Below are positions 17,201 to 44,200 of a DNA stretch of 64,000 bases, one piece after another. Under the pieces are notes generated by a model. That model was not told where the DNA came from and did not search any database. It was given only the letters and a program-made list of their open reading frames with translations. A program made the translations under genes and the position numbers. The first letter of the stretch is position 1; the number at the start of each line of letters is the position of its first letter. The stretch is from Centroscyllium fabricii (taxonomy: Eukaryota). The stretch spans positions 119,846,001-119,910,000 of the forward strand of contig JBNRSN020000014.1 of NCBI GenBank assembly GCA_051313645.2, written 5' to 3'.

Positions 17201-20200
17201 ACCGGCGATCACGACGTCACCGTGCGCCGCGCCTGCTCGCGCCCCGGCCGCGATCTTTGGTAGCGCACCCTGACTTACTGCCGGCCGCCACATTCGACGG
17301 GGTCAGGGGGTCTAACTGCAGCCGGCGCGGCGCTTATTAAAGGCGAGGTGCCGGTGGACATTTTTGTTGATGGCCGCCAGCCAGCACCTGCCTCCGTTGC
17401 AGTCCCTGGTCTTCTGAGCAGCACTCCCCCACCACCCCCAGAGTGCCGGGGGCACTCCATGAGCCAGCACTTTTGCCGGCACTCTGCTCCCAGTGGCCCT
17501 GGGTCGCACTGCGCAACGCCCTATCCCCTTAAGGGGAGGAAGGCCTACAATACAGTGCCGCAATATCCCCTCGCAACGCCCCAAGAGGGAGGTGGGCCGT
17601 GACCAATGAATCTTGGCCGCGGGGGTGTTAGTTTTTTCGCCCTCTTGGGATGCATTACCAATGAATTTCGGCCGCGGGGTTGCTAATTTGTTCGTAGCGC
17701 CCCGGTGACGTTAGAGTCCCAAAGGGGGCGGAACTCAATATTTTCCAATGAATCAAAAATGATTTTCCAGCATTTCTTAGCTCTGAAACTCACCAGTGTG
17801 CCATTGGATCCTTCACACAACTTGCAGCTATCATCAATGAAGAAACATTACAGTAGACTCACAACACGCCACACTTACCTGCCACGGTGTCCAGATGTCG
17901 GGAAGCCCGCTGTCGATCTGGCAAATTTGGAAAAAGCCTCTTAACTGCCTCTTAACAAGCAGTTAAGTGGCTATAATCCTCTTCCCGCCGCTCGAAGTCG
18001 GATGCGTGCACAAATCGGGGGCCCGACTCCCGGGAAGATTGATTGGAGGCGGGTTGGAAGCGGGTTCGGGACCCGCTGCCAATCTTTGATTTTGCCAGCA
18101 GTCTCCCCTTCAAGCCCGACCACTGAGCACCGGCAAAATCGAGCGCTATATATCAAGGCTCAAACAAAACCAAATTACACAGATGAGAATATAGACAGAC
18201 GGAAGATGATAGGCAGAGAACCAGATCGATTGTCAAAGAATATTGCTTACTTCTTAAAATTGTTGCTGTTTCTGACCACATATTCAAAGAACACAGCAGA
18301 CTGTGGGACAAAAACATTTAAATCATTAATATACACAATGGAGTTACAAACTGCTTTTACACTAACACAATCTTGATAGTGCTCGGTCAAGTCTGATTTT
18401 TAAACTTCTTTGAATTAATGCACATTTGCCAACTGCAGCTGATTTTCTTTCCAGGTATTGCCTTCGACAGTCAAACAATAGAATCATTTACCTGACTGGG
18501 CACCCACTGTTTGTTGTTGACATCATTGAGACTGAGGTTTGAAGCTAACAGCACAGGTGGGACCTCTTTGGCTAGAACAGATGGAATGTTCTTTACTGTG
18601 GTTACCGGGTCTTTTACATACCGCAACACCTGAGTTAGAATGAAACAGAATAGAATTTAAACCAGAACATACAACACCATGTGAGCAGCAGCTAGGGATG
18701 AAAACAGTCTTCAGACAAAAGCATTAATATAGGCAGAAGTAGGAAACAAATTAATTTTAGATTAATTTTAATACCACTGATATGTATCCCATGTCACTCA
18801 CCTGCAGAACACAGATCATTTGTATAGGTTGTGGTGCTGCTCCAATATTCTGAACGAATGTCGGGTTTGAGATTACACTGATGAACACCCGAGGATCAAT
18901 GCGTTGGAACACACCGCTTGGAATACCAGACAACAAGCTTCCCAGACTCCGCAGATTCTGTGTGCTAGTGACCTAGTTAACAAGCAGAAGACAAATCAAA
19001 TGTTGTCAGAAGATGTCACAGGATTAAATCAGTTTTCCACTTTTTGTGGCATGACAGTGCGATTACAAACGTGTCCGCCTCCCCACACAATTGTGCAGAG
19101 AAAAGGTGATGAGAAATAACAGAAAATATTCTGCTGTCACTTCAATTGGCTTCACCTCTCCACACTTGGCTTAAGGGTCAATTCCTCTCTGTTTACACAA
19201 GAACCTGGATCCATAAGGACAATTACACGGTGTTGAAGATCATTGGAACTCATGTAACTCATGCTTCTGCACTTCACTCTCACAGGGTTTTTACGCCAGA
19301 TCTTTCCTCCATTTCATTCAGCCATCTATAATGTATATATAATGTATAATACTATAATGCATTTCTGATTTATTCAGCTCTTACCCGGAAGCCATTTCTG
19401 AGTAACGTAGTTACAATCGCATTGGCCTGGCCAAAATTCCAGCCTCTGACATTACTCAGGCTTGGCAGGGCTTGCTCCAGAGTGTTCCCATCAATATCGC
19501 CAACCTGTGACAATGACAGTCCGACAGCCGTTTGTCCCAAAGTATTCAAAGTGCTGACTGAAAAGTTGTCAATTTTGCTCACTAAAACTATCGACAGCTG
19601 GAAAAGAAACAGAAATAGCATTAATACTGGACGTCTTTCTCAGCATACACTTTAAGTGAAATCACAAGGTTTTGCAGCAAATATTTCCTACTTACCTTAA
19701 GTTGTTCGTCTGTTGGACCTTCAGCAGGTAATGTTTCATTGGCAGTTGTGTTAGGTGGCATGCTCTGCCCACAGACTTGGTTTATCTTTCCAATCACAGC
19801 CAAGACTTGCTGTGCACTCAAGGACTGAAGTAGATTAGTGTCGGTAATGAAGCAGACCAGCGAGTCTGGCAGACTGTAAAAGAATGTCAGTCACAGATTG
19901 TATTATTATATCTTTCAGAACCACAGCGCCCTGTGCCCTGTAGATACATTAAGATATGCTACAAATAAGATCTTTGAAAAATGTCCTAGTGTTGCAGAAT
20001 ATTTTACAAGGGTTCATCACCCACTCCCATCTCAAACAGCATATATTCCTTTGTTCAGCTTACCCTCTATTTTCCCCCAAAATACTTTATTTCGTTTCAA
20101 AGTTGCAATAATTTTTTCATACAAAGATCTGAAATTATTTTAAAAAACTCTCTTTCTCTTTGTCTCTCCCTCTTTCTGTTGCACAGCTGTCAGTAATTAG

Positions 20201-23200
20201 AATATTTACATCTTCGAACGTTCAACAAAACAAGGCTTGGGCCTTCAAGTTCTGCAGGGATTATCCTCTCACCAACTGTGAGCTCTTTTTAAACATTAGA
20301 TCTTTAAAAAACATTACATTTAAGTTTTTGACTTCTTTTAAAACTTGCTTCAATCAATTCATTTTGTTCAAACTCAGACCACCTGCTCTGACAACCCGTT
20401 CCGCATTCCCAGCCGGCCTTTGTCTTCCCGACTTCGGGCATCCTGCTCACCCAACCCGCTTGACCTTCGGCTTCTGATGGACCGTTTCCCCATACCCCAC
20501 TCTTCTACTTCCCCGCATCCCTGCTCAACAAATTTAGAATACAGTTTTCTTTAAAAAAATTCACAGATCCAAAGATTATGAACAGAATCTTCCATTTCAC
20601 AACTTATGTTGGGAAAATATGAACTGTGTAAGACTTACCTCGAAATATTAACATTAGGATTGTTTTCAAGCAGCAAGTTGAGGTAGACCTTTGAAATTTC
20701 TGTGGATAATGTCAAATTTGCTAGCAGTCCCAGGTTTTCAGGGTTTACAGCGAATTCTTGAAGCTGCGCAGAGATTAGGAGAAATGACAAATATTGACAC
20801 CAGTGATGCAATGTTCTTTCTATAGCTTAAACAATGAAACTTTAAGGTTCATGTTGCTGCAACACACAATTGTGGTGAATATGGATTCCAACAACACTTC
20901 TCAGTGGCTTTAGTGGCAAACTCCTAATATAAAAGCCGGTCGGGGTATAGTGTCATCTTGGGTGGTTGCACAAAATGGGCGATCATGAATCGGCAGCTCA
21001 TTTTGCACTCCACCCGATTTTCTTATCCATTGACTTTAAATGGACTGCCGATTCGCTCTCTCATGTTTCGTGCTGCGGCCCAACACGAGTTACACCCCAC
21101 AGGAAGCAAAATATTAAATTAGTTGGCAACATAATTCACAGTAGATTTGTCATGCACTCGAAGCTTCATGTAACCCAATCTTTGAGAACAGATCACTTCT
21201 CCCGAGAACCCAATCATTTACCATCCCAATCTTAGAGTAAAAGGAAAATGTGTACCTGTGTTTCATTATCAGAGAAAGACTGAAGATCAGTCAGTGACAC
21301 TTGGTTCATATATAGTCCCAGATATTGAGCAAACCAAGCAGTGGAGTTCAGGGCTGGATCATTTACATTATAGCATTTCGGTCTGGGACCTGTTGTATAA
21401 AATAATTCCACATTAACGCTAAATAAAATGGTGTGTCATTTTTAAAAGCATGTTGTAAATTCCACACAATTTTTGCTACCAAAAGGGACTCTCACCTTCC
21501 CCCTCTAGAATTATTGCTCATTTTAAAACAACCTATCTCCCCTCCCCATGGTGGCGATTCTCGCTGGGGTAGAGTACCATGGGTGCCAGCAGCCTGGCAC
21601 TACTCTGCAATTTGTCATGTCTGAGCCTAAACAGGAAGTGTCAGCAGGCTTCTTGACTGCAGAGAATCATAACCCAGCTGGATACCGTTGTGGAAATCGT
21701 GATTACCATTGTATATAGTTGAGTTACACTACAGACCAGCATGTATAGTGGCTGGGTGCATTGTATATAGTTTTGTATAACGACACTGTCACGAGGTCAG
21801 GTCAGCCACACCTCTAACTCCTCCCCTCAGGTGAGAGCCTTATAGGTGAGGTCTGACCTGCCCCCATTCATTCTGTACTCAATGTTCGACTGGAGACTAG
21901 CTCCATTCTAAAGTGATTAAAAGCCTATAGTTAAGGTAACTACTCATCTTTGCCTTATTGACGATACGTCAACCGTCTTCACCGCTCATCAACTCAGACA
22001 CCATTTCTAATAAAGATCTCTGGATGGTGACAGCAGCGAAAACCCTGGCTGATTTTTCACTTTCCTCGTCTAAGACAAGTAAGAATAGTCCCAATTCTGA
22101 GACTTTAAAACAATAGAGTGTAACTTCACCTTGTTGTAGGTAAGCTTTAATGCCATTGTAGATGTCCTTCCGTTTCTCTGATGTAAAGTCACTGTAACCA
22201 GCACTCAGTGTTCTCACACTAAAGGTGAAATTTAACAACATTTTAGAATTTCATCTGCAGATTGAGTTCAATTACTGATAAGTTCAATTTAAAGAACCAC
22301 AATAGAAATGAAGATATTCTAATGATAGAACCAAGAGAGGACAGCTAACCACAATCTTTGTTTGTGCGTGTGTGTGTGCGAAGCCCCTCAGACTCTCCTT
22401 TCCTTTTTTTCCCTAATTATAGATGATGACCACCAGCAACCTGGATATTAGATATTCTTTATCATATCATATTGTCCTTTCTCAGTGATAAACATTCAGC
22501 TGTAGCGCTCTGCTGATATAATGAGCAAACTAATGCTGGAGAACGATTTACACAGGACAATGAGGGACTTTGCTCACTTGAAGATACATTCGGAACGACT
22601 GGGATTGTACTTACATTTTTCTGTAGGAAAGGCAGCGAACTCTCAGGGTGTTGTTGGAAGACAAAAGAGAGGTGGTGATAAATGGAAGATATGGAGTTAG
22701 TCTAACATTAAGCCATTCATCCACCTCTGCTTCATTGAGTACAGGCAGGCTGTCGGTAAACTGAGGCCACAGACCCTCTATGATGGCAACTCGGTTACCA
22801 GCTGACAGATTACTCTGCAAAAGGAAATAGACTTGTTTTAAAACGAAATACTGTAATTGTAACATGATAAAGATTCCCTCAGCTTGCCATGTGATTCTAC
22901 CAAGTAGATCCATTCTTGAAGACTAGCTTTGCTGAACTGGAAACTAGGACTGAGCATTTGTTACAATCAGAGTTAGGCTTTGGAGGGAATCAAATTTTGG
23001 AAACATCTAAAATTGAGCAGCCCCCACAGCTGTCACTACAAAGCCCTGAAATGCCAAGAAGCGAACATAAAGAAAAGTCGCCTCAGCCAACTGGCCCTGG
23101 GACTCAGTGAAGTAACTACTAACACTACTAGTAACAACCAGCCCCAGGACAGTGACATCCTAGCACACAGAATTCGACCCAACACAATTATTACTAAACA

Positions 23201-26200
23201 AAGAGAAAAATATTTGTCATACTGGACAGAAACGACAAAAACCCCAAACAAACTAGATTGTTATTTGGCCCTAAACAGACCGTACACCACGGCTGACTAC
23301 CTGACCATGGTGAAAGACAGCAAACTGAGAAAAACCCTGACAATGTACAGACTTAGTGAGGATAACCTAGCCATCGAAGAAGGCAGACACAGACAGACTT
23401 GGCTGCCCAGAGAGGAAAGGCTGTGCTCTCACTGCAGTCAGGGAGTGGTGGAGACAGAGCTGCATTTCCTCACAACCTGTGAAAACTATCAGGACATAAG
23501 GGGGAATTTCAACCCAAAATACATAAAAACATGCCCTGGATTAAAAAATTTGAACGACCACCAAAAACTTCCATATCCATTGGGGGAACAGAGGAACTGT
23601 ATAAAATTAGCAGCAAACTACGTCACAGCTTGCCATAAGCAGAGGGACAACCAGTGACCAATGAATCTAAGAAAAGATTATGAGATTTATCTGTGTCTAT
23701 ATGTGTATACGTTTGCATATTTATCCATTCACTGTATGTCTAGACCTGCGTTTGTATGTTCAATTGTATATGTCCTTTTTCTGTGCTTTGGCAACATAAG
23801 ATGTATCTTATTATGCCAATAAAGTAATTTGAATTGAATTGAATAAAATTACTGTTCTGATTCTGATCCACAAGTTTAAGTTATAACATTGCAAACCCCA
23901 CCACCCCCATCTGCCTTGTGCTGTTGGCGAGTTCTCTTGTTCGAGTCCAGTCACTGCACACTTGTATGTTCCAATGGGAAATCGTGGAAAACATTCCTGT
24001 GGTCCCCAGATTTCATCCAGACGTTCCTCAGCTGGCTAAGAAATGGGCAGGAAAGAAAAACCTCCACAATCCTTATACCCTGTTAAACCTTGTCCATGCG
24101 CACGTTAAATGTACAGTCAAAGCATCCATACCTTCTTACACCCACACCCTTGCCCTCCTGTTAAAGAGGCATTTAGACTTCCAATAACTACTCCAGGACC
24201 ACAGCCCATATACTCTCACTGCTCCGATATAATGGGCACTATTTTGTTTGAACCACTACAGTTTATCTACATTACATCCTGTGATCTGAAAAGTAAAATA
24301 ACAGTTGCAGCTCACTTTGCCGCTTTTTTGATTGAATTCATCTATGAATGTAGCCAGATTCTGGATGGGCTGAATGTAGAATAACACTGTGGTCAGAATC
24401 TTGTTGTCATTAATGAATCCAGGCTTGCTCAGCATATCAGCCAATTCACTGGGATCAGTGACATTCAACACCTGTAAAAACACAATGAGGAATTTCTCAA
24501 CTTCATGTAAATAACTGGCAGCAGACCATGTAAAGCAGCTGAATGCACGGCATCACTAGATTAAACTTGTAAAATATTAGTGTCAATCACGGCCACTGTT
24601 AATCCTGTTTCATGTTACAGACCAGCATGACTTGAGTTCACACTCACAAGCCTGGTCCTGAAACACTTCACAACGCTGACTCAACCCCCAGGGGAGGGGT
24701 TTGTTGGATATGAGGGGCTTCTTCTGAGGGCCACGGGGAAAATAATCGAATGGGTCAATGTGAAGCGGTATTATGCTCTTTCTCGGAACATGTCACACAA
24801 CACTTGGATAAAGGTAACTTCCCTGGCCTCTCAGTCAGCAACTAGCACATGGCGCACGAGCTTGAAGGATCAGAAAATTGGCTTCCCATCCCTCTCCCCC
24901 ATGAAGCCATTGGTGAAAATAACCTAGACCGGTTTTCTGCTCAAGCAGCTGAGTTTCTAACTCACTTCGCTATCCAGCTGCTCAAAATGTACCCACAGTT
25001 CAAATCAGGCCCAGTGTTCGCGGGCTTCATCCAAGGGAAGACACACTCTAAAATTGCTAGACTCACTGCAGCTGCTACTAGAATATCAGGTGAGTAAAGC
25101 TCACCTGGAAACACAGACACCCAGCCCAGTTCACAAAAGAAAAATAATTTTGTTTTACCTCAACAGCACGTTTGGAAGGAAGCAGGAAGAACGCATCAGT
25201 CAGAGTTAGCAACTCAGAGAACCTTTGGAAATAGGTGTCCACGTAGACAACATAACTGTTGCCTTCATAACAACGAAGTGGGATTGCTGGGAGAAAGAGG
25301 GAAAATATTAGGTCAATTTGCAAACATAGATGTCAACTTCTCATTAATTGTAAACATCTGAAACCCAAATTATGCAGCAGGGTAACACATGCAGAGTTAT
25401 TGATTAACAGATATTCAGAACCAAAAACTCATTTAATGTTCTCTTTCATTCACAACTGCCTTTCTAGCTTACCTGTGGTGTTGAGGTAACCGAAGATCCA
25501 CACTTTCAGCACAGACTCTCTTGTTCCACGTGTCATATCATTGAATCCGTTGCTCAGTCCTTTTACACTAAATGGATAAACATTGATAGTATTATTTATT
25601 AGATATCAGCTCTGTAGTAATCCTTCAGCTGGTGGAGAACAATTTTAGGATCTTTCCCTAATGATGCTCAATGATCAGGTCTGGTGTCAGTAACTGAAAG
25701 CTGGTGCCAGTATCTGTCCCATGGTGATGAACCTCTCTCAGGGATCAGTTCCAAAATGGGCTGATAAAAATCTCCTGTTTTTAGGTCTTTTCTTTCATTT
25801 TTCGCACCAATCTTCTCCCTTCTTCTTCAGACAGTCTATCTCCTTACTGCAGTACAATTCCACAGCCATGGGGCACCCTCTGGTAACTCAGGCTGCTGAA
25901 GAATCTTAATGACAGAGCTGAAGTATTTCAGTACCAGTGACCAGCTCTAAATCTATCTAATTCTTGCGACTCATACAGCACACATTCGCGTCATGCAGAA
26001 TATTTTATAGTGACTTCTTGCAGTATTCTGAATTACCAGGAGGAAAAGCCTGAGGCTTGGATCTAGCAATACTGACACACTGGGCAGTCAGTCTCACCTG
26101 TTACTGAATTGTGTTTGGAGCTTGAAATTCCGAAGGTCTGTATAAGGCACTTCATACTAAGGGGGGGGAATTTCATGTCCCCATGAGGTGGGGTTTTCGG

Positions 26201-29200
26201 CGGCTCGGCCGGCAAAATAGCACAACCAGTGTGTCGCGACCCTCCCCGCTGTATCCCCGCCGCTTTATCATTTTCCCCCGCCCCAAAACCTTCCCGCCGC
26301 CGGCCGGCGGAGATGGGTTGTCACCTCGTTAAGAGCCCTTAATTGGGATGTTTAATGCCATTTTAACGGCCCTCAGCCATTTTGAGCTATTTCCCGCCCT
26401 AACCCCATCACCTTAAACCCCGCTGGGTGAAACCCAGTGGGAGCACAGCGCTGGTTATTACTTTTTCCTTCAAGATGTGAAGGACATGCTGCCAAATGCT
26501 TGACATGCCTCCAGCACCTTAGAGGAGTAAGTTACTCCGTAGTTGCTGCAGCAGCTGTGAGCAAAAGCTGAGAAATCTCAGCTTTGCAAATTTGCTCACA
26601 GCCGGTGCGAGCTGTCAAGGATTCTGAGCCCGCCCGCCCACCTGTCAGTCATCAGCACTCACCTTTCCCATTGGTTCCACTCGACTGTGATGTCACAGTG
26701 GAGTGTTTCCATGGGAACTGTCAACAACCAGTGCTGGAACTGTCAATCAAACTCCTTGCAGCCCATCCCGATTGAGTTAATTACCACCCGCTGCCGCCGG
26801 CGTGGATTTAACAACTCAATTAAATTAAAATTGCGTGGGCTTCCCAGCTGTTTGGGCGGGCGGGACAGGAAGCCGCCGAGACCAATCCCCGCCTGGTTCC
26901 CGCCCTTCCGGCAAAGTCCCCTCCTAAGTGTGCTCTCTGACTATTCACGATTTAAAATGTTTTGACAGGGATTGCTTTTCCAGTTGAATATGCAGCAATG
27001 GATTATTGTAAAAGAGAGTCATTCACTCACACTGCTTGGTAACCATCACAAGTTATGTTTCTTGTCAAAAGGCGGCTCAGCACTGACTGAGAAGTGCCAG
27101 CAATGAACGGCCTGAATCGCTCCTGGAACCATTTTTTCAGGAAAGTTGCACTGGTTAAGTTTTCATTGGTCTTCACAATCTCCCACAGGGCATTCATGAA
27201 CGTGATCTTTGTCATCAGAGGAATTGCTGATGTGTTCAGGGTCTGAAACAAACCATGACCTGTGTTTTAACTCAGTGAGCAAAGAGCTTCTTTTACAGGT
27301 TTCAACACTGATATTTCCCTTCAGAGAAGAACTGGAAATTGGAACATTTCTAATCCAAAATATCATGCAGTGGAATCGGACAAGTGTAGGAAACAAAATA
27401 TTTCCTTTTTCTCAGTTGGATCAGCCAGGTTGCAGAGCACCCACACCACAACAATGAATGCAATTGCATTTATAAAGCAGCTTTTCAGTTCCAAAGACAT
27501 CCCAAAGTACTTCAAAGCCAATTAACTATTTTAGAAACGTAGTCACTCTTGCGATGTAGGTAAAGTCAAAACCACTCAAACAACCACTAGCCCTGTACCA
27601 GGTAACAGGACACAGATAGACATCTGCAGCCCACCAACTAATACACAAGCACTCAAGAGCAATGGGATTTAGAGCTTCCAATGAATGAGAGTATATTGGG
27701 ACTAGGGTAAAGTTAACATCTCCTTGGACATATATTTGGACCCTTGGCACAAACAGATGGATTGCCGAGTGCAGAGATCAATGGGCCTACATTGAAGGTT
27801 AGAATACAAATGCAACAACAACAATGCCTTGCCTTTCATGATGCTGCAAAGGAATTAGTGATGCAGCTAAGAAATGAATAGCTGCATCTCTGATATTCAA
27901 TACATGTGGCACCAATGGTTGGCTGCAACACAGACCATCGTGTAGGGAATGGCGGCCAACATGCTGGTGCTGCAATATCTGAAACTAGTAATCAGGAGAT
28001 TTCTTAGGCTTCTAATGAGGCTGTAGTCAATGTTGCGGGAAGGTATCTATAAGTTTGTCCAGCTACAGTGGTCTGCCTTCAGGGTACTTGCAGCCCTGAA
28101 CATATACTGGCCTAAGAAGGGAAACTCAGGCCATGGGTAGTCCGATGACAGGAGGTCAAGACTGAATACCACTCAGATCAGGAATACCGTGCACGGCTGC
28201 TTAAACATCACTCTAAAATAAATCGTAGACACTGCATGTAAATAGAGGTGTGCATAGTTTTGCTTCTTTTAAAGTAATCTGGTTGATAATTAGTTACCTT
28301 GTTGTTGAACTTGTCCAGTGCCTCATTCAGTGTAGTTCTGTCAAGCTTCTGAACAAAGACGGTCAGTGCAGATTCATCTGACCTATTTAGAGCCTTTGGG
28401 CCAATGAAACACTGGAATACACCAGTCAAGGCATCACTGCTTAAACCTGAAAGCAGTAGATCAATCTGCAAAGCAATCAATTTAGAAAAACATATGTTGG
28501 GTTAAGGCATTGATGCAAAATACCACCAAGTGTGGAACACTCCACTATTGATAAATTCATTCCATTTTATATGTGCTGAATGTGCTAGTAATAAGAACAT
28601 AAGAATTAGGAGCAGGAGTAGGTCATACGGCCCCTCGAGCCTGCTCCGCCATTCAATAAGATCATGGCTGATCTTCAACCTCAATTCCACTTTCCCGCCC
28701 GATCCCCATATCCCTTGATTCTGCTCGAGTCCAAACTAAGAACCTAACAATTAACAACCATTATCCTGCAGTCTTAGAATGGAGCAGCTCTACAACTACT
28801 TTGTTTTATCGGAGTGTAAGCTGTCACAGACGTTCTTGTGTGAAACTCTGGACTGCGACATAGCTTACCTCAGCACATGCGTAGTCTGTAATGTTGAAGT
28901 TGCAGAGTTGGCTCATGTTAACTTCAGTCAGGAAATTATTCAAAGTCGAACTGTGGGAGAGAAATAAATCTACTCTTAGGGAAGAAATTACACTGAGGAA
29001 CAAACAACAGAATAATTTATTTTGAATTCTCAACATGTCACATGATTTGAAACTAATCCAATTTGTTAACTACGTTTTCTAACAGTTTCTAAGTTATGCA
29101 CACGAGAGGCTTTGGATATCCTCAGTGTCAGGTGAAGCCACACACCAACAAGTTGACAGGGTTATTAAAACAGGGCCTCACTTGAAGCAGTGTGGAAAAG

Positions 29201-32200
29201 GTATTCTCCCCAAATTCTTACCTGTTCACAGCTGCACACAATGTTGTTTCTGTTTGAAAAGTAGAAAAAAATTAACATGCAGTAATTATCATACTAAAAT
29301 TAACTGGTGAAATTATTAAAAAAAGGTGTAGAAAAAGCACTCACCATTAACTGTGGTTTTACCAGGCTAAGGAAGAGAAAGCACAATATCTTAAATTCAT
29401 ATTGATAAATGTTACATGATAAACTATGCATATATGTAAGTATTATTGCAGATTTTGAAAAAACATTAAACCACTGCCTTTTCCATAAACCAACAAGTGT
29501 AAATTTACTGAAATTCAACCAAAATATTGGTTTTCAAAACACATGTGGGCTAGAAATTGGACTGAAAACTGACACTTTTGAAAATACAAAGTGTTGAGTC
29601 TGTCTTACCGTATCAGGTTGGGGTTCTGAAAATATAACAAAATGGTTATTGTTAAAAGTTGGTCCTGATAATGTGTTACTATTCTTAACCACACCATAAC
29701 ATTATACTGATCTCAGAAGAGGAAATATTTCTGAAATGTCACATTCCTTTTGGCAGGTTCCCTCAATCCCATAATATAATGGCCTCGATTTTCATTGAAC
29801 CGTGGAGTCGGGATTGGAGGTGTGCGGGGGTTAAAATCCCGAAATCAGGGGTCCCGACCCCATCCCACCTCCATGCCAGTTTCAAAGGAGGCGGGAACCT
29901 GCCCCGAAATGGGATCCGCCTACCCGAGGCAGAAAGGGATCAGTGCCAATTAACTGCCTGTTAACAGGTAGTTAACAGGCAGTTTTTACCCTAATCCCTA
30001 TTATTAATATTGATGTGTGAGATTCTAGATGGCTCCAAACCACGCCAAGTTAGAGTCGTCGGGCCATCGGGTTGAAGGACTTGGCGGGGTCAAGATGTCG
30101 GTGTTCAGGTGAGTGATATGTGCATGAGTGCAAAGGTAAGTGTGTTTGGTGTGGCTAAAGTGATTAAATGGGCAGGAAATTCGGTGTCTTGCGCCTGCCG
30201 TTAGCTCCCTAAGAGGGCGCTAATGGGGCGCAAGGCACATAGCGCCTGAACTGCAGCCTCCCACGGTATTCAGTGGGGCGCTAACGTGGGCGGTAGCCGG
30301 TAGCGCCCCACTGAATATTAAACACTGTTCGCTGCCGGGGATGACGTCATAAGTGAGTGCAGCGCCACTCTGGGCCAGCGATTGAAATTGGGTAGCGCAC
30401 GCTGAGTTTTCGGTGGGGGCTGCCCGCGACAGCTTCATCCTGCCGTAACTGCAGAGGGGGAGCGCTGCTTAAAGAGGAGGGTGCAGGGCGGCCATTTTTG
30501 TTGCTGGCCGACTGCCAGCACCTTCCCCCTATGCCGCCCCCAGCCTCCCCCGCTGCCCCCCCGCCCGCGGTGTGATGCCTCCGATCAGAGCCCGGAACTT
30601 CCCTCGAGTGCCGGGCTCCTTCGGTGTCATGCCGTCCCACGGCGGCCCCGCGGGGCTCTGGCCGAAACTGCGCTAGGCCCCTTCCCTTTAATCGGGGAGG
30701 AAGGCCTGCAGTACCACGGAGAGGCACTCTGCGCTGCATGACTCAGCAACCCACAGCGCCCAGAACTTCGGCTGTAGCGCCTAACGAACGAGGCTGGGCG
30801 CCTGTAATAGTGCCCAACCTCCGACTATGGGCGCTACAACCAAATTTCAGCGCTAACGGCGCCAGCAGTCGGCCGGCGTTAAAGCAGTGCTGCACCGATG
30901 TTACCGCGAGAAAACGTGTGCAACCCAATTGATCCCCAAATAAGTTTTACATACCTTTTCTTACCTTTTCAGCTTTCCTTCCTTTAGGTCCCAGGAGTTC
31001 CTCATCTCACCGGCACAAAAAGCAGAAAGGCAGCGAACTGTCAAAGTGACAGCCTGCAGCTTTCTGTGCAGGAGAGACTTCCAACTGAGTCTGTGGAGAA
31101 GGACTCGGGTTAGAAGCAAGGTTGCCAGTGTTTGACAGCTTCAAACAGCTGTGAAACACTGATATTTCATCTGTCAAAATGTCTTAACAGATGAAATTTC
31201 AGTCTCTGACTTCACCTGTTGCCGGGTGGCCCTGAATTGGCCTGCTGTGTGGGCTCAACAAGGTCAATCAAGTTAAACTCGCGTGGATTGGCCGCATCTC
31301 GATGGAGGCGGGACAACAACCCCGAAAGTTGCAATCTCACCTCCCATCCGACTTCTGAATGAAAATCACCCCCAATGTGTCCACACCTGATGTTTGACAT
31401 GTACTGTACTGTAAAATCGACGGGCCTGACAGTAAATCTTAGCCCCTTTAAGCATCTGTCACTGCCTTAGCTGTGCTAATCCTAAGGACTCTTGACATTA
31501 CATTATAATCAATGTGTGCAATTAGTACAAAATGGCAATAAAACCAAAAGTGCAGAACTGTTATCACCAAGGAATTATGTTGAAAGTGTCATGGAGGCTT
31601 TCACATACACGACAAAAAAACGACTGATATTTGAGCATAGTACTTTCTGGTTTCAGCAAGGAATTACCTGATGAATTATCTGGAATTCCTCCTGTCAACC
31701 CAAGTCTCCTCACTTCAGACTCAGTATGTGAGGCCACCCAAACGAGCACTACTGTTTCATTCACTCCATCTTGAAGAGCTTGAAGGTTAAATCCAAGCAA
31801 GTCGATCAGATTCTGGGAATTCAGTTTCTGAAACAGAATTTTTTTTTGATGAATGAGTCCAACATATTAGATTTCACACCTCATCAGGAACTTGCCCTTT
31901 ATTAACTTGACAGCATGAAATCAAGGTGCAGGATGGGACTGGCAATGTTGGATTTGAACTAGTGATCAGTTTGCAGTATCTTCGATCCCTTACTAGAAGA
32001 TTCATACATTACTCAGTATAAGGTACATCTTATACATTTCAAGTCTGTTGGAGTTATATTCTAAAAATAAGTGATGCTGGTCACTGCAGTAAGTGGTCCC
32101 CACTTCTTGTGTTCAGGAGCGTGTCTGGTAGTGCCCAATATATAATTACATACTTGCATATCTTGAGGGCGTAACAATAGCATCACCTTCTGCTGTCATT

Positions 32201-35200
32201 TAGATATTGCATCTCTCACATGCACCCTCACGTATGCTTGTCCCATCTTTCAATATGAAGACTATAAACCGCACTGCCTTGTCATGCGTTAGCAGTTCAG
32301 CCAGAAAATAAGTTATTTGACCTAAGGGCGGCACGGTGGCACAGTGGTTAGCACTGTTGTCTCACAGCACTGGAGACCCGGGTTCAAATCCAGCCTCGGG
32401 TACTATCTGTGTGGAGTTTGCACATTCTCCCCGTGTCTGCGTGGGTTTCCTCCGGGTGCTCCGGTTTCCTCCCACAGTCCAAAGATGTGCGTGTTAGGTT
32501 GATTGGCCAGGATAAACTGACCCTTAGTGTTATGGCGATTGAATATGTGGGGTTACGGGGATAGGGTGGGATATGTGTCAGTGCAGGCTCGATGGGGATC
32601 GAGGGATATGGGGAGAGGGCAGGGGCGGGGTGCTGGGTTTGGATGATCAGCCATGATCTCATTGAATGGCGGAGTGGGCTCAAAGGGCCGAGTGGCTTCC
32701 TCCTGCTCCTGGGTTCTATGTTTCTCACAATTTACAATATTATTTGAACCACATGCCCAGTGTCCACTGTATTCTTTTGCTGAGATGTCTATTATTTAGA
32801 ATTCTAAAGAGTGCAGCATTTACTGTGGGTTTTACAGCCTTTCCATTCATTATAGTTTCAATCATATAACACCAGACACAATTACTTTCTCTACATTTAT
32901 ATTACTGAAGGGCAATTCTACAATGACATGCGATCAATCAACAGCACGGTTTCAGGGTCGATGGGCTGAGAATGAGATGTGAGGTAAAGAAACTGGAATC
33001 ACTGCCATACTAATATAAGCAGAAGATCATAATCATACTGTACATACCTTTACTTCTTCAGGATCCAAACCCTTGAAGGTTGCAAAGTCCATGTTAACCC
33101 TATTATTTGCAAGATACTTCAGATCATCAGCTGAGGCTCCACCTGAAGAAAACAGAGACATTGTTTACTTGCCCTCTACAGTATAACAAGTTATACACCT
33201 TGGCGATGACCTTTGAGGGTAAGGCGAGTGCGGAAATATGTATTCCTGCCAGAGGGGAAGGAGGCCTAATAAATAGGGAGGCGGCCTTGGACGATTTCTT
33301 GGTATATTGCCCCAATAACTTCTTGAAACGAATTTTCAAAGGTGAAGCATCTGTTGGCACTCTTCATGTTCAAGTAGCAGTTTGGGAGAATTCCTGAGCA
33401 CCCCACCCTAAGGCGCACTGATCCCACGCTTGGTGGGAGCAGACTTGCGTTCCGTACTGGGCCTTCCACAGTCCCCAATTGCAGAACTGAGATAATTGAT
33501 GCAAGAATGCATCTAGTTTCCCCATTGGAGTGGCAGAGAGCTGCTTGGATTTTCCGTTGAGCAATTGGGACAGGGACCTCTATAGTCCCCCTGCAGGCAT
33601 AGGTAGGCTCCCCCAAATATTAAGAGAATTTGGGACTGGTTCAACTTCCTTTTCAGACAGGAGTCCTGCTCCAACGCACTTCTAGTGGTGGCGTGTGGTT
33701 CCTGGAATTCCAGCTCTATCAACTTCAAGGAGAAACAAAAATTCCAGTGAAATCATTCTTCTGCCATTGTTGCTTTTCCAACAGCACTCATCATTATGTA
33801 ATACAATGGAGTTTTAATTGCTGATTTCTGCTAATTTTATCAAATTGTAACAAAATTGGGTCAGCGATAGATTTAAAATATAGTGAACTCATCAAAAATG
33901 AACAGACATGAAATGAACGGAGTCAGCTGTTGCAGCTGGTTAAACTGCAGCAATATTTTTGCACACACTTGAGGGTCCTTAAGCCTTTGCCAATCTGAGC
34001 CTCTGAATTAGGTAAGTAGAGTGTGTGAATTCCAGAGCAGACAGGCAGAGACTCTGCCTGTGAGCACCTCAGGAGCTTAGATTGAAGACACAAATATGAA
34101 GATGGTTTCCTTGTGAGTCAGACACCTGGCTGAGCAAAAAAAATAAGCATAATTTTACTCACCAACATACACCTTTATCAGGTGAAAGTAGGGGATCGGG
34201 TTACTTTGCTGAGAGCTCAGTGCAGAGAGCGCCTGACTGTAAAGCAAGTTTTTCTTCGACTGTGTGCACACAGAAAGATCCAGAGCTCCTGCATCCCTGT
34301 GGGAGAAAGGTTGCAATGTTAATTTTGTTTTGCATTTCTGCAACTGCACCAGGTAAGGGCCTTGTCGCTGCACTTTTCAGCCCAAAGAGATTTACCCAAT
34401 ATTTTGGCAATATGTGGTAGAGTGTCCAATAGAATGTGCGACGTATCCAAGTTTGCCGTCGATACTAAGATGGGAGGGAAAGCAGTGAGTGAGGAGGACA
34501 TAAAAAACCTGCAAAGGGACATAGACAGGCTAGGTGAATGGGCAAAGATTTGATAGATGGAATATAATGTTGAAAAGTGTGAGGTTATTCACTTTGGCAA
34601 AAAAAATCAAAGAGCAAATTATTATCTAAATGGAGAGAAAATTCAAAGTGCTAAAGTACAAAGGGATCTGGGAGTCATGGTGCATGAAACACAGAATGTT
34701 AGTGTACAGGGACAGCAGGTAATCAGGAAGGCCAATAGAATCTTGGCCTTTATTGCAAGGAGGGTGGAGTATAAAAACAGGGAAGTCCTGCTGCAGTTAT
34801 ACACGGTATTGGTGTGGTCACATCTGGAATACTGTGTGCAGTGTTGGTTTCCATATTTGAGAAAGGATATACTTGCTCTCGAGGCAGTTCAGAGAAGATT
34901 CACTCGGTTGATTCCGGAGATGAGGGGGTTGACTTATGAGGAAAGGTTGAGTAGTTTGGGCCTCTACTCATTGGAGTTCAGAAGAGTGAGAGGCGATCTT
35001 ATCGAAACATTGTGAAGGGGCTTGATCGGTTGGATGCGGTGAGGATGTTTCCACTGATGGGTGAGACTTGAACTAGGGGGCATAATCTAAGAATAAGGGG
35101 CTGCCCTTTCAAAACTGAGATGAGAAGAAACTTCTTCACTCAGAGCGTGGTGGGTCTGTGGAATTTGCTGCCCCAGAGAGCTGTGGAAGCTACTACTTTG

Positions 35201-38200
35201 AATAAGTTTAAAACCGAGATAGACAGTTTCTTGGAAGTAAAGGGAATTAGGGGTTACGGTGAGTGGGCAAGTAAGTGGACGTGAGGCTTGGTTCAGATCG
35301 ACCATGTGATCTCCTGGACAAGTTTCGATCGCCTAGATGGGTCGGAGAGGAATTTTCCAGATTTTTTCTCCCAAATTGGCCACTGGGTTTTTCTCAGGTT
35401 TTTCACCTCTCCCGGAAGATCGCTTGGGTTAGGGCGGGATGGAGAGTGAAAGTAGATTTGAGGTTAAGATCAGATCAGCCATGATCTTGTTGAATGGCGA
35501 AGCAGGCTTGAAGGGCCGATTGGCCTACTCCTGTTCCTATTTCTTATGTTCTTATGCCAAACTCTCAATCACATCTCCCAGCGTAATTCGAACTTTTACT
35601 GACAATGGGGCAGAAATTCCGATGACCGCGGGGCCGCAGTGCGTGAGTAGGGAGCGGGTACACACGCGTGCGGCCCTGAAATTGTAGGTAGACGCCATTT
35701 CCCTGGGATACCTGCAATTCTGAAGAAGACCAGCAGGGGGTCGGGAGCTGAATCGCATTGGCCTGCGCACCAGGAGGTGCGCAGTGCACATCCGATTTGT
35801 TTCAGAGTTTTTGATCGGGGTAAGTATTGAAGATTTTACACCTCAAAATATCAGCCGTAGCGACCCCTTTTTAGCAGGTAAGTCTTTATTTTATAGAATT
35901 TAAGTATTTTGTTAACAGGTTTTTAAAAAAAAATCACTTTAAAGACAGGTAAGTACTTTTTTAGGGCAGTTAAAAACTTTTTTTTAAATGTCAAAATTTT
36001 TATTTTTTGTTTAAAATAGGTAATTTATTTTAGTTATAGTAATGTTAAAAAAGTGATGTTTATTAAAAATTTATTTTACTGTTTAATGTGTTTTTGAGGC
36101 TCTTCCTTTTCATAACTTACACAGATCTCTCTGTTAAAGTTATGAATGGAGGATTCCTTCCATTCATTGGCTCCCCGCGGACCACGTGGTCCCGCGCGAG
36201 CTCTCGAACTAACTCCGTCGCTGAGTTGCCTCAGCACGGCGCCTGTGGCCTGGAGCAGCACTACAAATCGGAATTTCAAATCCCAGAATTGGAGAACGGC
36301 AGGAGCGCAGGGTAAGTATTGTGGGTTGGTGTGCCGACAACAACCTGGCACTGAACACCAAGAAAACCAAGGAGATCATAGTAGACTTCCGGAGGACTGG
36401 AAGCAGAAGACACACCCCCATCTTCATCCAAGGGGCTGAGGTGGAAAGGGTGTCCAGCTTCAAGTTCCTCGGGGTCCACATCTCGGAAGATCTCTCCTGG
36501 TCACTAAACACCTCCTCTCTGGTTAAGAAGGCCCAACAGCGCCTGTACTTCCTTAGGAAGCTGAGGAAAGCCAGGCTGTCATCCGGCAGCCTCTCCAACT
36601 TCTACCGCTGCACAATAGAAAGCATACTGACAAGCTGCATCACTGTCTGGTATGGTAATTGCACTATCTCGGACCGGAAAACCCTGCAGCGGGTAGTCAA
36701 AACTGCCCAACGAATTACCGGTACACAGCTACCATCAATGGAAAGCATCTACCTCAAACGCTGCTTACGGAGGTCTATGAACATTATTAAAGACCCCACA
36801 CACCCCAGCCACAGTCTGTTCGCCCCTCTGCCCTCTGGGAGACGCTACAGAGCAATTCGCACCCGCACGACTAGATTTCAGAACAGCTTCTTCCCCAGGG
36901 CTGTCAGCCTCCTGAACTCTAAAAAGAAACTCCGGTACCTGCACGCCTGACAATGAACTTTACTGTATGCAATTTTCATGTAATTTATTTATTTCGTTTG
37001 CACTACTCTCGGGAGAGTCGAGTCTTCGTCTCGTTGTATTGTACTAGTACTCTGCAATGACAATAAAACTTGAATTGAATTGAATTGAAGTGGACCTCGG
37101 AGGCTTGCACACGCAGGAAGCCTCCGAGGCTAATTTTTGGGCCACTATCAATTCAGTGACTCATGTTTGAAAGGGCATGTGTATTCACTGGGAGACTTTA
37201 GCGGAGGGCAGGATTGGCTTCTGCTGTGATGCTTTCCATAGAGAAATAGCCTGCTCACGTGGCTCACACTCAACGAATAGTTGTTTGGACTGGGTACAGG
37301 CCTGTGGCAAATGTACACCAGAAATGTTCAATGTTCAAAATTCAGAAGTGATTGAACCGGTGAGAGCATTCTGTCAGCTGTGAAGTTGTTCAACAAGGTG
37401 TCTCCTCATCACTGTTTGCTTCACAATTGCACTGCACTATGTCGCTTCATAGACTAACTTTGGTTCTGATGTAAATGGTCACAATTCACTCTTCAGGAAA
37501 CTTGCAATGAAAAGATGCGACACTTACGTCAAGTTTGAAATTGCCATCAGCTGACTTTCATCCAGAGTACACAAGTTGGCTCCACCAATAGCTTTCAATG
37601 AAACTGCGTTTAGAATACCATCTAATTGGAGGTATCTTGTAATGATGGATTTAACCTGCAGAAGGAATTTTAAAAATTGTTCATACCTCACTGTTACATA
37701 GAAGGACGTGTAATTTAAGATGCTGCTTTATTTGATGCTTGTTTTCCACAAATTTATAACGATGCAATATTTACATAAATTCCAATAATTGTACTATTCT
37801 CCTTTTGGAAAATATTTATCAATAATCCTTTTAACTGCACATCACATATTGGCCCAGAAATTCAGCTCCCAACGCACGAGTACGGACAGGGTACTCACGC
37901 GTAAGCCCAACTAAAGTGCCGGTTACGAGCATGCACTGTGCATGCGCGGGAAATGGGCACTCCGTTCCCCTGAATGAAGGGGTTAAGAGATGGAGTGCAT
38001 TTGCGGGAGCGCCAGCGTGTATGCATTGCACTTACAGTTTGTTTGTTTTTTACAGGTTTTTACGTGCGGGTAAGTCTGCAGATTTTACACATGTAAAAAG
38101 CACAATGAAACGGCGTTTAGAATACCATCTAACTGGAGGTATCTTGTAATAATGGATTTAACCTGCAGAAGGGATTTGAAAATATGTTCATACCTTACTG

Positions 38201-41200
38201 TTACATAGGACCTATAATTTAAGATGCTGCTTTATTTGATGCTCGTTTTCCACAAATTTATAACGACACAATATTTGCATAAAATTCCAATAATTGTACT
38301 ATTCTCCTTTTGGAAAATATCCATCAATATATTTTTTAATTGCACCTCATATTATTTATCAAATTTCCACTGTACCATTGCCCATTCCCAGCAATTACAC
38401 ACTGTACCCAACTTCCTGCAGCTGTTTCAAAGCACTGGCCCAAGGTGGTTCCGGTTTCAAGGAAAGACAAAGGGGGCAAAATGGAATCGCGCCCATTTTT
38501 GGTGCGCTAACTTCGCTGGGGCGCTACTTTTAGCACCCCGGAAAAATTAGCACTCCCGCGGCCAAAATTGAGTGGTAGCGCCCCAAGAGGGAAGCGGGGT
38601 GCCGCGGTATTGCAGGCCTTCCTCTCCTTCTTAAAGGAGAAGGGCCATGCATAGAGCGACACCGAGCCCAGTTGGGCCACCGGGGATCGGAGTGCCGGGC
38701 TCATGGAGCGCAGCTGGCACTCCGCGGGGGGCGGGTCAGGATGCCGCAGACGGTTGCGCAGGCAAGTGCTTGCAGGCGGCCTGCAACAAAAATGGCAGCC
38801 CCGCATCTCGCTTTTAAATAGCGCTGCCCGGCTGCAGGTAGGCCCACCTGACCCCGTCGGACATAGCGTCCGGCAGTAAGACACAGGGGGCGATACCGAA
38901 GATCGTGGAAGGGGCGCTGCGCACAGTGATGACGTCATCGCCGGTGGCACAGCGCAGCGGGGCGCTAATAGTTACCGCCGCTGTTAACCTCCAGCTGAAT
39001 TTCGCGGGAGGAGTTGGTGGCGACATGCCCGGGCGCGAGTTGCTTTGCGGCCCATTAACGTCCTAACCGTTGGCACCCTCTTAGGGCGTTAACGGGAGGC
39101 ACAAAGGAACCGAATTTTTCCCGCTGAAGGTCTTAAACTTCAGAGAGCAAATTCCACATTTCACTCATGATCAAGTCACATGTCTGCAGATACCAATATT
39201 TTCACATTAATATTCTCCTGGTTTCAGTACCGTTGTGATTTCCAACTGCGGCATCATTAATGCGGAAAGTGTCACAACTTGCGTGATATTCCAGCTGCTG
39301 ACTTCTGTCGCATTAAACACTGTGGCTATCCTCCCCAGCAGTTGAATCTGGCTTTCTGGTAGCCCATTGGGATAAATCTGTTTCAGGAAAACCAAAACAA
39401 TAAAATTCAGTCAATTTGTTAGGAGTGATCAGCAGTATTCAAATCCAGCTTCAAATTCCTTTTTGGATCTAGAATATTTAGCAACAGATTATTTCCAGAT
39501 CTGTTCATTAACCCTTGACCTTACTGGCTGGAATCTTTACCTTAGAGTCAGGGCGGGAGCGTGCAAACGGCGCAGCGGGTCGCCCTCCCGAAGTTTTCAA
39601 CAGCGTGTTCTGCACTGAGCGTTTAACTCAATTACATCAATTGAAACAATCACGTGGGTTTCCTCGGCCAATTAAATGGAGAGCGTCTGATGACGTAACC
39701 GATGACTTGCTTTCAGCTCAGGTATTTAATGGAGTCTTGCACACATCCCAATTGAAGGTTGTTGGGGGAGGCTTACAGGTGGTTGGGAGTGGTGGCTATT
39801 GGTCTATATTGAAGAGATGTGTGTGGGTGCAAGCAAAGATGGAGCCACAGCGATAGAAGGGTGCGCCCAAGAGAGAACCGGAGGTGGCCCGCCAATATAT
39901 ACTAATTTAACGACTGCAGAGGAGGCCCTCGAAATAAGTGGCGTGACAGAGCTGCTGGTGGTGGGAGATGGAGAGAGGGGGACCTCCCAGCAACCTGCTA
40001 AAAGAATTAAATATCCCGCATGACATACAACAGTCACTCATGGTGACTAATGTCAGCAGACAGTGAAATATCATCATGTGCATAATGGTAATGTTACACA
40101 TTCTTATCATAAGTATCTTATTCATGTCTTTACTCTCCCACAGGTCCATCAAGTGCGCCCACCCCCACTGTCCAACCGGAGGAGGAAGACGACTCCTCAG
40201 AGGAAGCTCCATTCTCGGAGGGTGCACAGTCACCAGACCCATGTGCACTCAGCAGCAGCGCAGATCTACACACATCAGTGGGTCCAGCAGGACATGGAGC
40301 AGTGCTGTCACCTGGTGTCTCATACATCTCAAGTGAGCAAGAGCAGATGGTGGAGACAGGGAGAGGAGTGGAGACTCCTCGCTGGAGGGCGCATCACGCT
40401 CCAACCTCTGCTCAGCTGGATGCAGATGCTGAACCTCGGGGGCTTTTCCAGCCACAATCGGTGCGATTGTAGAGAATGGAGAAATCCATCTCTAACATGA
40501 GCACCACCATATCACAGGTGATGGCAACAAAGTGCTGTTCCATGGAAAGGATGGCCTCCTGCATGGAGCAGCTCAGGTGCCAGTCGAATGTGAACAACAG
40601 ATTGCAGTCTCTCACTGACTTCATCTTTAGGAGGGATACCAACATAGACTTAGACCTTCATTGCCCCACTGCGATGTCCAGTTCCATGCAAGCAGGGAAG
40701 TGTAGGTGGCCCATGAGAGGGATGATGTTGAGAGGGGACGTGGAATTGGGGGCTCTGCGCAAAGTGCTCCCACTTCTCCACCAGGATGTCCAGGATGCTC
40801 ATCTTCTGTCTGTATACCCTGCGTTGAGGGTATAGCCTTCGGCGCAGTGCACCCCTGTGCTGATCCCCTCTTTCATGTGGAGCATCAGGTCGATGAAGAG
40901 AAGGCTGCTGGTGTCGTTGCCGTTGGGGCTCATTTTGGTCCAAATCCGAGTTCCAAGGTGAGACTGCATAACTGGCACCCATGCAGATCTGATAGATGCC
41001 AGGTAAAGTGGAGATCAGAATTCTCCAATGAAGTGAGAGTGACTTGCAATGTGGGGAGGGTGTCTTCCGAAGGTGCAGAAATCACCTGCAAACTCCTGAA
41101 AGCAAAATCTCTGCACAAAATCGTGTCATCAAGTGGGAGTAAGTCAATGATTGGTCCAGTGAGGATCCTTAGGTTTTGAATGATTGTAAGGGAACAAGAA

Positions 41201-44200
41201 GGCAGTCCCGACAGCCACAAAGGGTGGAAGATTTCAGGAAGAATCCAGGGGACACCAGAGAGACAAGTGACAAAAGGCACAGGGTGCGGCCGAGTTACAG
41301 TCATGACTTTGACCCAGAGCATAACGGGGTAATGTAAGTCTCAATTATACTCTGTAAACTGCTCTAATACTAAGGTATAAAGCCTTGCTTGTGTTGAATA
41401 AAGTTAAATCACTGTCACCGATACGGGTCAACTTCGAACCTTTTGCAATCAGTGTGCCTCTGGGTCACTTATCTCATAGCTATTTCTGATACCTTCCTTT
41501 GTGCAAAGTGGTTGTCACATTCCTCTCTATTATAACATCACGGCAATTTAAAAATTGCTTCATTTCCTGTGAAGCACTGTGGGATGGCCTGAGGCAGTGA
41601 AAGGCACTATATAAATGCAAGTACAAAAGCAAAATATCGCAGATGCTGGAAATCTGAAATAAAAATGGAAAATGTTGTAAATACACAGCAGGTCAGGCAG
41701 GATCATTGGAGAGACAAAAAGAGTTAATGGTTCAGGTGGATGACCTTTTGACGAACCCGACCTGCTGAGTATTTGCTGCATTTTCTGTTTTTAGATAAAT
41801 GCTAATTTCTTCTTTCTCTCTTTTCATACCTGTAATAGTCTCTTTTTCAGAACTTCCAGCTGAGTAGAATCAAAGGCAAGAGATCCCAGTTGGAGGACAT
41901 TGTTTTTCAGCACAAGTTTACTCAAACAGAGATCTAACTGGGCGGCATCATAGATTGCAGGTGTCAGGTCATTAATGGCTTCTGCTGCTATCGGTCCCTC
42001 TGTACAGACTGGAAACAAAACCTTCTATTAGTTATAATACTTCAGTTTGCTGGTAAACATGCTCTCAAAATATCAAAAATGACCATTTAATCAAAGCCAT
42101 TCCTGGATTACTGAATTGCCGGTGAAAGGTAACACTGGTGAAATTATAGATCTGCAATTGAAAAAGAATATTTTAGCATCACTTTGCTATTTTCAGCATA
42201 GTGACCTTACTCTGTCACCCGCAGAACAATGGACACTCAACACAAAGCTATATGGGTTGCGGGACAAGTAAGCAAACTGCACGTGTCCATCAAGATCCTC
42301 TTGTTCCATTGATGCTCATGAACAATGTTCCCGCTAAGGTGCCCGTGCACACGGCCGCACAGTAATCTGAAAGGTTATATTGTAAATACCGCACATGCAC
42401 ACAAACTTCAAGGGACTCCGCATTAAAAGAAGAAGGCCGCGCAAAACAAAGCGCAGATTCCAGGGAACATTGCTCATGAACTGAGGCTGCATCATATTCA
42501 TAAATGAAGGACAGTCCTGTCCTTTCACTGATGACTTATGCTCTACATACATAATGGTGCTTCTCCTGCAGCATCCTGGAACTCCCTCGCTAACATGCAC
42601 TGCGGGAGTACCTTCACCACACAGGCTGCAGCAGTTCAAGAAGAAGGTTCACCTTCTCAGGGGCAACTAGCGAGGAGCAATAAATGCTGGGCTTGGCAGC
42701 GACGCCCACATCCCAAGAATGAATATAGAATAATATGAATTACATACTTGCTGTATTGTTTGATCTTCCTCGTAAATTGAGCTGATTTATGAATAACAGC
42801 AGGTCACTTGGGGGTTGCAATCTTTTTGCTTTTTTAATAAATCTTGGGAGAGCTTCATTAAGGACAACCTGCATGGGACAAAATGAGAAAAGCTGAAGAA
42901 TGTCACAGAAAGAATATCTGATTTCATACAGTTCCTGATTTGCCTGCGGTAACATTTGCAAGAAAACATATTTCACCAACGAAAACATTTGCTGGAAAAC
43001 ATTAGTGCTAGTGCTATACTGGAAAGAATGGTGCTTGCAGGACAAAGGGACGATTGCCATGCAATTCACAAGCCCACCCTCCAACATCTAATTCAATGGA
43101 AGCCTCCAGTGCTAAGCATGTTTGAAAAAGAACACAACCACATGTAAAAGGAGCTCTGCGTAGAGTTCTCAATGAGCCTCACCAGATTCTAAGAAATCTA
43201 CAATGATTTAGAAACCAACACATTTTCAGATTCAATTTTGGGCCTCCAAATATAGGGTTCAACAAAACCACCACAACCATATTATAGGTCAGTGACAAAC
43301 TGCCCAATATCATCGTCCACGTTAATGAAGTTACCATGCATGTCATTGTGATTTCAAACTGGAACTCATTTTTATGTGGATGCAAATGTTTTGATCAAAT
43401 AAAAAGTGAAAACATATCTTCATCACGTGGGATTTGGGTCACTTAGTGTTTCTCAAGAACAGGTTTTAACTGAAGAGTGTATTATAGTCCAACCAAGATT
43501 TTCAGTGGGGTTATTGTCTCACAAATTTAGCTATCTGAATCAATTTTAAACCAAGTAAAGCATACCCTGTTTACTTGGGTCCATGTTTCGGTCAAAGCCA
43601 ACGGAAGATTTCCTAGATCGCGTATTGTAGATGACGACCAAGATGAAGGAACACTACAGAAAAAGAAGACGCTCTGAGTTAAGAATACATTCCTATAACT
43701 GCCACCTTAAAAATACAACTGATAAGTACCGTCTGTGTTTCAACAGCAAATAATCTGCAACGGATATCCTCTAAAAATTCATGCTCCAGCTTTTCTGAAT
43801 TACACTGAGCAATTTTAAAATCCCATGCCTAACACCCAAAAGTCACCGTACTTTCAAAATCATTCCCATGAAAATATACACAGAATTTTCCAACTGAGAT
43901 GTGGAGGAAGGAAAAACTTGAAAATTAAGAACCCTTTTCTCACACACTTACAACTACCTTTCTTCTGGCCACAGGCTGCTAGAGCAGTCAGTAGAGTGCT
44001 TAGGAATATGGTAATTGCAAAACAAAAAAAGACCAAGGTTCATCTTGTTCACCTTCTACCATCCTGCAAGTTGCAAGATACAATGATATGGAGTTGTTGA
44101 CTAATCATGGCGATCAATCTCTATCAATTAGTCTGCAACAAATCCAGACATCAGGTGAGGAAAGCCCCAGTGGTGGAAAGCTTTGGGAACCATAGGTCCA

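Follow-up and report, generated by a model that had tools for sequence, protein, structure and literature searches.

Micro-exons at the module junctions of a shark mesothelin-family gene are most likely old N-terminal coding exons

The window analyzed here, a stretch of 64,000 nt from the shark Centroscyllium fabricii, lies in a mesothelin-family gene that has ten modules on one strand within the 864 kb examined, and three micro-exons in the window make up junction 6-7, one of nine in the gene. We consider it probable that these micro-exons are native N-terminal exons which are routinely included, the first two encoding a tether predicted to be flexible and glycosylated and the third opening the next folded domain. 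The junction itself is real and conserved, and it is most likely constitutively included. The features concerned are as follows.

Module 6: window 31668..64000, starting outside the window at contig position 119912929, minus strand; ~99% identical to module 7 including introns
160-nt last exon of module 6: 31668..31827, minus strand; phase 0 to 1, covered by a contig of the public run X1
Module 7: window 1..29625, running on to contig position 119842215, minus strand; 30 exons, 3786 nt, 1262 aa
17-nt micro-exon: 29609..29625, minus strand; phase 1 to 0, donor gtaaga
22-nt micro-exon: 29345..29366, minus strand; phase 0 to 1, donor gtgagt
28-nt micro-exon: 29222..29249, minus strand; phase 1 to 2, donor gtaaga
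82-nt exon: 28869..28950, minus strand; phase 2 to 0, Cys-rich start of module 7
168-nt exon of module 7: 28298..28465, minus strand; phase 0 to 0

An earlier note, made from the letters alone, had described three micro-exons of 17, 22 and 28 nt with these donors, and exon mapping on the minus strand confirmed them, together with the phase chain 1-0-1-2 and the linker peptide that it had read. The phases after the 160-, 17-, 22-, 28- and 82-nt exons are 1, 0, 1, 2 and 0, and every acceptor in this series ends in AG. The pyrimidine-rich acceptors claimed for the three micro-exons hold for those three; the acceptor of the 160-nt exon in the module 6 copy is A-rich, not pyrimidine-rich. As had been proposed, the 17- and 22-nt exons keep the frame only as a pair (17 + 22 = 39 nt), and either of them alone causes a frameshift. 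The 22-nt exon carries an N-glycosylation sequon that is completed by the next exon, and the 28-nt exon holds the invariant first cysteine of the module's N-terminal domain. Upstream, the 160-nt exon ends just past a GGIP motif, which is the end of the Pfam mesothelin match, and its counterpart in the terminal module is 187 nt long. One unit comprises 30 exons, 3,786 nt and 1,262 aa, in agreement with the 28 exons plus two that had been counted before.

Splice-site scoring, transcript mapping and a survey of related species had been put forward as checks of the micro-exons. Scoring used our own rough matrices, built from vertebrate frequencies, with cut-offs set post hoc at the weakest observed score. 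With these matrices, exactly three candidates of 9-30 nt were found on the minus strand of the window, namely the three micro-exons. The plus strand of the window, used as a control, gave four candidates in 64 kb, and the control outside the gene gave eight in 194 kb with both strands counted. The background is therefore 12 candidates in ~452 kb of control strand, or about one per 38 kb, compared with three inside 404 nt. Weak scores were also noted at a donor (39231, -1.7) and two acceptors (10343, -1.6; 7720, -1.9), where the frame is kept in all copies.

Transcript evidence came from X1, a public run that is labelled as another organism and whose RNA status is a guess. Letters 578-739 of one 876-nt X1 contig align to 31668-31829 (the 160-nt exon), and letters 736-876 align to 29609-29629, 29345-29366, 29225-29249 and 28881-28952, so that the contig continues without a gap from the 160-nt exon over the 17-, 22-, 28- and 82-nt exons and joins all five. 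Intron ends are canonical at two of its joints and shifted by a mismatch at the third, and the 160-nt exon forms the loose end. At its own loose end, a second X1 contig (171 nt) matches the 28-nt exon of module 10. Splicing at junction 6-7 is thus documented by one contig of one run from another organism. A direct joint of the 160-nt to the 28-nt exon was absent among the two aligned contig records, a form of data that drops rare variants.

The micro-exons at junction 6-7 are one instance of a regular series, which was found at all nine junctions of the gene with lengths of 17/22/28 nt in seven, 23/22/28 nt in one and 20/22/28 nt in one. The first micro-exon measures 23 nt at junction 8-9 and 20 nt at junction 9-10, lengths that differ only by multiples of three, and the pair is frame-neutral at every junction (39, 45 or 42 nt). 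The 22-nt exon is constant in length and phases in all ten modules, module 1 included. Module 1, which has only the signal peptide upstream, begins with exons of 64, 32, 22, 28 and 82 nt whose phases are those at the junctions, and the intron between its 22- and 28-nt exons is 99 nt long, compared with 90-95 nt at the junctions. The 32-nt exon, which likely encodes the end of the signal peptide, is the positional counterpart of the 17-nt exon. In terms of letters, the 28-nt exon is clearly like that of module 1 (18 of 27 aligned letters, with the cysteine in register). The likeness is weak between the 17- and 32-nt exons (11 of 13 aligned letters, out of 17 and 32) and for the 22-nt exon (only 9 of 19). 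Because of this weak likeness, the homology of the micro-exons is drawn from position, length, phase and a motif found in frogs. Single-module mesothelins of Xenopus, Pyxicephalus and Ascaphus have a signal peptide followed by Cys-x5-Asn and Glu-Thr-x-x-Cys, an N-terminal motif that corresponds to the peptide of the 22- and 28-nt exons and whose pattern occurred in six of the 179 proteins scanned. These amphibian proteins (Xenopus msln.L XP_018092094.1, Pyxicephalus XP_072273587.1, Ascaphus XP_075421887.1) consist of one long unrepeated module between the signal peptide and the GPI tail, and their mature N-terminus is like the peptides of the two exons. The exon series of module 1 and the frog motif together indicate that the micro-exons are most likely old coding exons 2-4. 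The earlier note had seen them as a new linker occupying the place of the GPI tail; their match is rather with the exon series behind the signal peptide of module 1.

This origin would be explained by a duplication. In the ancestral single-module gene, one phase-1 intron would have lain within the region for the signal peptide and a second one ahead of the GPI exon, and tandem duplication of everything between these two introns would have created a class 1-1 unit. The donor of the last ectodomain exon would then have faced the acceptor of coding exon 2, and their joining would have kept the frame and lost both targeting signals. In the present gene, the borders of the repeated unit are all of phase 1, at the end of the signal-peptide exon, at the ends of the internal 160-nt and terminal 187-nt exons and at the entry of the GPI exon. 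Since both flanking introns are in phase 1, such a duplication fuses ectodomains in frame and drops both signals. Earlier studies link the class 1-1 rule to phase-1 introns near signal-peptide cleavage sites (PMC8001218; PMC1626468), and the frequently used class 1-1 modules are described in one of them as small and mainly beta (PMC8001218). The unit found here shares with these modules the phase-1 flanks, the origin from a secreted protein and the in-frame duplication. It differs in that a whole helical ectodomain of 30 exons and 1,262 aa was duplicated rather than a small, mainly-beta domain, and in that the duplication was in tandem, with no shuffling to other genes (PMC8001218). The duplication would predate the split of sharks and rays, and later unequal crossing-over would have produced seven copies that are ~99% alike. 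The start of the unit resembles module 9 and the remainder resembles module 1, as is expected of unequal crossing-over. The joint would then be a clean and nearly complete record of a secreted ectodomain turning into a repeat unit, in which two phase-1 introns remove both targeting signals and the former first exons serve as the tether.

Among the matches listed, from which relatives were drawn as the best 150 of 280 and their cluster members, multi-module models were found in whale shark, zebra shark, stingray, manta, skates, axolotl, killifish and catfish, and the fusion is present in the RefSeq models of the sharks, stingray, manta and skates named. The multi-module elasmobranch models are likely orthologues: whale shark XP_048465576.1 (4,700 aa), zebra shark XP_059510198.1 (7,881 aa), thorny skate XP_032896963.1 (7,628 aa), stingray XP_059834805.1 (5,494 aa) and the little skate 'mslna' locus. 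They share the junction peptides, the terminal GPI-type tail and the last two module types with our gene, but have at most five modules compared with ten here, the difference arising via seven recent 35-kb copies. Of the five modules in zebra shark and thorny skate, the final two are the counterparts of modules 9 and 10 here, indicating that the fusion is older than the shark-ray split and that the seven near-identical copies are recent. Near-identical repeated junctions were also seen in the stingray, axolotl, killifish and catfish models, and their sequences suggest independent recent expansions. The view in the earlier note that the fusion is functional rather than accidental has held up, the fusion being real and under selection: the junction is spliced, the series recurs at nine of nine junctions with lengths that preserve the frame, and it is found in other species.

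The length of these junctions bears on whether the 17- and 22-nt exons could be a regulated switch, being skipped jointly in some tissue or stage so that the tether would lose 13 residues and one sequon. We regard this as unlikely, though it is the best placed of the alternatives. Eleven of 20 elasmobranch-type proteins held 23 junctions and the other nine gave no match, some rows being near-duplicates. From GGIP to the cysteine, 15 of the 23 junctions are long (18 or 22 residues; 18-22) and eight are short (8 residues), as if the 17-/22-nt pair were missing. The short junctions, two of them from transcript-scale Logan contigs, indicate that the short form is tolerated, and an apparently equivalent junction is long in Amblyraja and short in Leucoraja, both automated models, which may reflect alternative splicing. 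The pair is also frame-neutral at all nine junctions of our gene, but this neutrality follows equally from the ancestral 1-0 and 0-1 phases. Moreover, short forms recur mainly at set module positions (junction 1-2 in every species where they were seen, and junction 2-3 in the two skates), a pattern better explained by fixed loss than by regulation, and the sole contig over the junction includes both exons. The short junction 1-2 of the other elasmobranch species is absent from this assembly. SRRM4-type neural micro-exons, which are mostly frame-preserving one by one and tissue-switched, share with ours a size below 30 nt. In contrast, the micro-exons here are individually frame-shifting (17, 22 and 28 nt, none a multiple of three), and no switching was observed in the one contig. 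Routine inclusion stays the preferred reading.

The membership of the gene in the mesothelin family is based on profile and structural matches. The Pfam Mesothelin profile PF06060 matched two of 13 window exon stretches above the cut-off (33 and 27.1 bits, compared with 25.8), and matched the whale-shark orthologue in four stretches with 1119.5 bits; the match ends at profile position 586, at the GGIP motif. An AlphaFold model of the whale-shark junction (12 alignment rows, mean pLDDT 79, pTM 0.67) consists of two all-helical blocks, as expected of a helical ARM/HEAT-like solenoid. Its pLDDT falls below 50 only at residues 152-171 and at the cut C-terminal end. Residues 152-171 correspond to the 17- and 22-nt exons together with the end of the 160-nt exon before them, a helix starts from residue 174, and Cys178, in the peptide of the 28-nt exon, is invariant in 12 of 12 rows. 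The model thus supports a flexible hinge of ~20 residues at the junction. The short hinge imagined in the earlier note from all three micro-exons stood for the end of the 160-nt exon and the 17- and 22-nt exons, but the 28-nt exon is modelled as part of the next folded domain. Six structural matches to the whale-shark model were found at E < 0.001, all of them human mesothelin chains (E 1e-5 to 6e-4). A PDB sequence search with the Heptranchias protein returned nothing at E 0.01, and the structural link to mesothelin came only from the fold. In the human mesothelin crystal structure, the chain past G585 is not visible (PMC10035497).

Human MSLN (622 aa; PF06060; PDB 7ued, 8cz8, 8fsl) shares with our gene the PF06060 region, present here at each module end, a furin-type site before a Cys-Thr start (here in modules 9 and 10) and a GPI-type tail at the end, and its structures match the modelled C-terminal part of the whale-shark junction. 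However, human MSLN is one short module, whereas ten are present here, each with an N-terminal repeat region of 650-1,600 aa outside the Pfam match, and eight of the ten lack an R-x-K/R-R site. The R-S-K-R sites were found only in modules 9 and 10 (contig positions 119715989 and 119619558). Human mesothelin is reported to be split by furin, which yields soluble MPF and a GPI-anchored portion with MUC16-binding activity (PMC10035497, PMC2628672). With sites only in modules 9 and 10, cleavage would release ~12,200 residues as one chain, like human MPF. The stingray and manta models carry R-I-S-K-R at one late module.

A unit of ~35 kb is repeated in tandem in the locus with 98-99.8% identity including introns, and a marker exon had ten genome-wide matches, all at this locus, a lower bound in the 7.2-Gb genome. 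The full gene model has 329 coding exons, 41,979 nt and 13,992 aa with no internal stop, spans 629,655 bases and predicts a protein of 1.54 MDa with 330 N-glycosylation sequons. Neither a stop nor a non-canonical site occurs in the 227 exons (9,605 codons) that run from mid-module 1 through module 8. Modules 1, 9 and 10 were chained using orthologous proteins as guides, with exon edges chosen partly for phase fit, so their open frame is not a fully independent test. Module 1 may lack one 0-0 exon in the model. The gene is predicted to start in a 64-nt ATG exon of module 1, and two orthologous proteins, one skate-like and transcript-derived and the other a catshark model, have matching N-termini; two further-upstream ATG exons were set aside because the peptide of the chosen start matches orthologues. 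Module 10 ends with the 187-nt exon followed by a terminal exon with a serine run and a hydrophobic tail and then AATAAA. The putative signal peptide and GPI-type tail were recognized by eye and hydropathy and are common to the orthologues. The closest protein was from the shark Heptranchias (89% over one exon), and the 200-nt exon at 22617-22820, used as a homologue query, gave no match among 33 candidates.

On balance we somewhat favor the reading that the whole locus is one 42-kb CDS of ~329 exons. It would encode a GPI-anchored chain of ~14,000 residues and 1.5 MDa, in which ten mesothelin solenoids are linked by micro-exon tethers and which would rank with the largest vertebrate proteins. 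Its fast-changing module number, amplified independently in sharks, stingrays, axolotl, killifish and catfish, would tune the reach and avidity of an epithelial surface coat. The 42-kb mRNA is predicted; the longest transcript aligned at the locus is 876 nt. The product would be a GPI-anchored string of helical solenoids of ~1.5 MDa bearing the 330 sequons, and by analogy it would most likely serve in adhesion or as a barrier, as a long, multivalent glycoprotein on an epithelial surface. The hints on expression come from a list of salmon skin genes that names mslna (PMC12339338) and from a row for a mesothelin-like protein in a catshark semen proteomics table (PMC11083954), neither of them tied to this gene.

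The seven near-identical units could be partly an assembly artefact, leaving fewer modules with the junction still real, since units that are 98-99.8% identical including introns are the hardest case for assembly, but we give this little credence. The copies carry private insertions and shared variants, and no N occurs in 864 kb. Compared with module 7, four copies have 9-12 synonymous and three non-synonymous codon changes and one has 12 and 12, these comparisons not being independent. In the DNA run X2, contig depth was 43 for a variant present in five of the eight copies and 9.5 for a possible module-9 junction contig, depth not being equal to copy number. That the locus is instead a tandem cluster of separate or partial genes with the junction an occasional read-through is very improbable: in stingray, little skate and catshark, annotation pipelines break such loci up into neighboring models, and the longest aligned transcript is short, but the array holds no internal signal-peptide or GPI exon copies, the micro-exon lengths vary by multiples of three only, and a 3,067-aa protein of a 10.5-kb Logan contig spans from the signal peptide through a junction. 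Across 864 kb, neither the signal-peptide exon nor the 32-nt exon nor the GPI exon has a match other than itself, and a scan of three junction introns gave no hydrophobic terminal exon. We also rejected a hidden GPI exon and intron retention as readings of the junction, the best hydropathy being 0.2-1.05 compared with 2.26 for the true terminal exon, and read-through hitting a stop without a hydrophobic tail.

The junction is already contained in public RefSeq models and the duplication mechanism is of a known kind; the interest lies in the titin-scale size of the gene, not in the micro-exons. No paper on a multi-module mesothelin was found among the literature matches listed, and shark genome supplements may list the gene. 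Expression of the full model would make mesothelin, known as a small cancer antigen of poorly understood normal role, a titin-scale surface protein in this shark, and repeated independent expansions in fishes and amphibians, if true, would point to selection acting on length and avidity. This gene class is likely an annotation blind spot, being split or unnamed in most of the models examined.

Several further features of the array were observed. An A run replaces the pyrimidine tract before the 160-nt exon in two of the eight near-identical copies, modules 6 and 7 (window 31828-31850, minus strand, and contig position 119842375; score -4.0 compared with 7.3). It is either a real mutation or an assembly error, and skipping of this exon would cause a frameshift. 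Module 2 has a 15-nt in-frame deletion in its 212-nt exon (contig positions 120058128-120057932). A partial duplicate of the 128-nt exon with its acceptor, a possible decoy splice site, lies ~500 nt upstream of the true exon in some copies (window 38103-38352 and 2679-2928). The N-terminal part of module 1 (contig 120222882-120131542) contains repeats of three or four exons of ~209, 104, 120 and 160 nt, and internal exon repeats of this type are fewer in modules 9 and 10 and fewest in the seven copies. In addition, the introns of the window hold many short interspersed repeats and open frames at 13787-15376, 34509-35191, 48365-49350 and 57379-58056, which by their motifs would be reverse-transcriptase-like.
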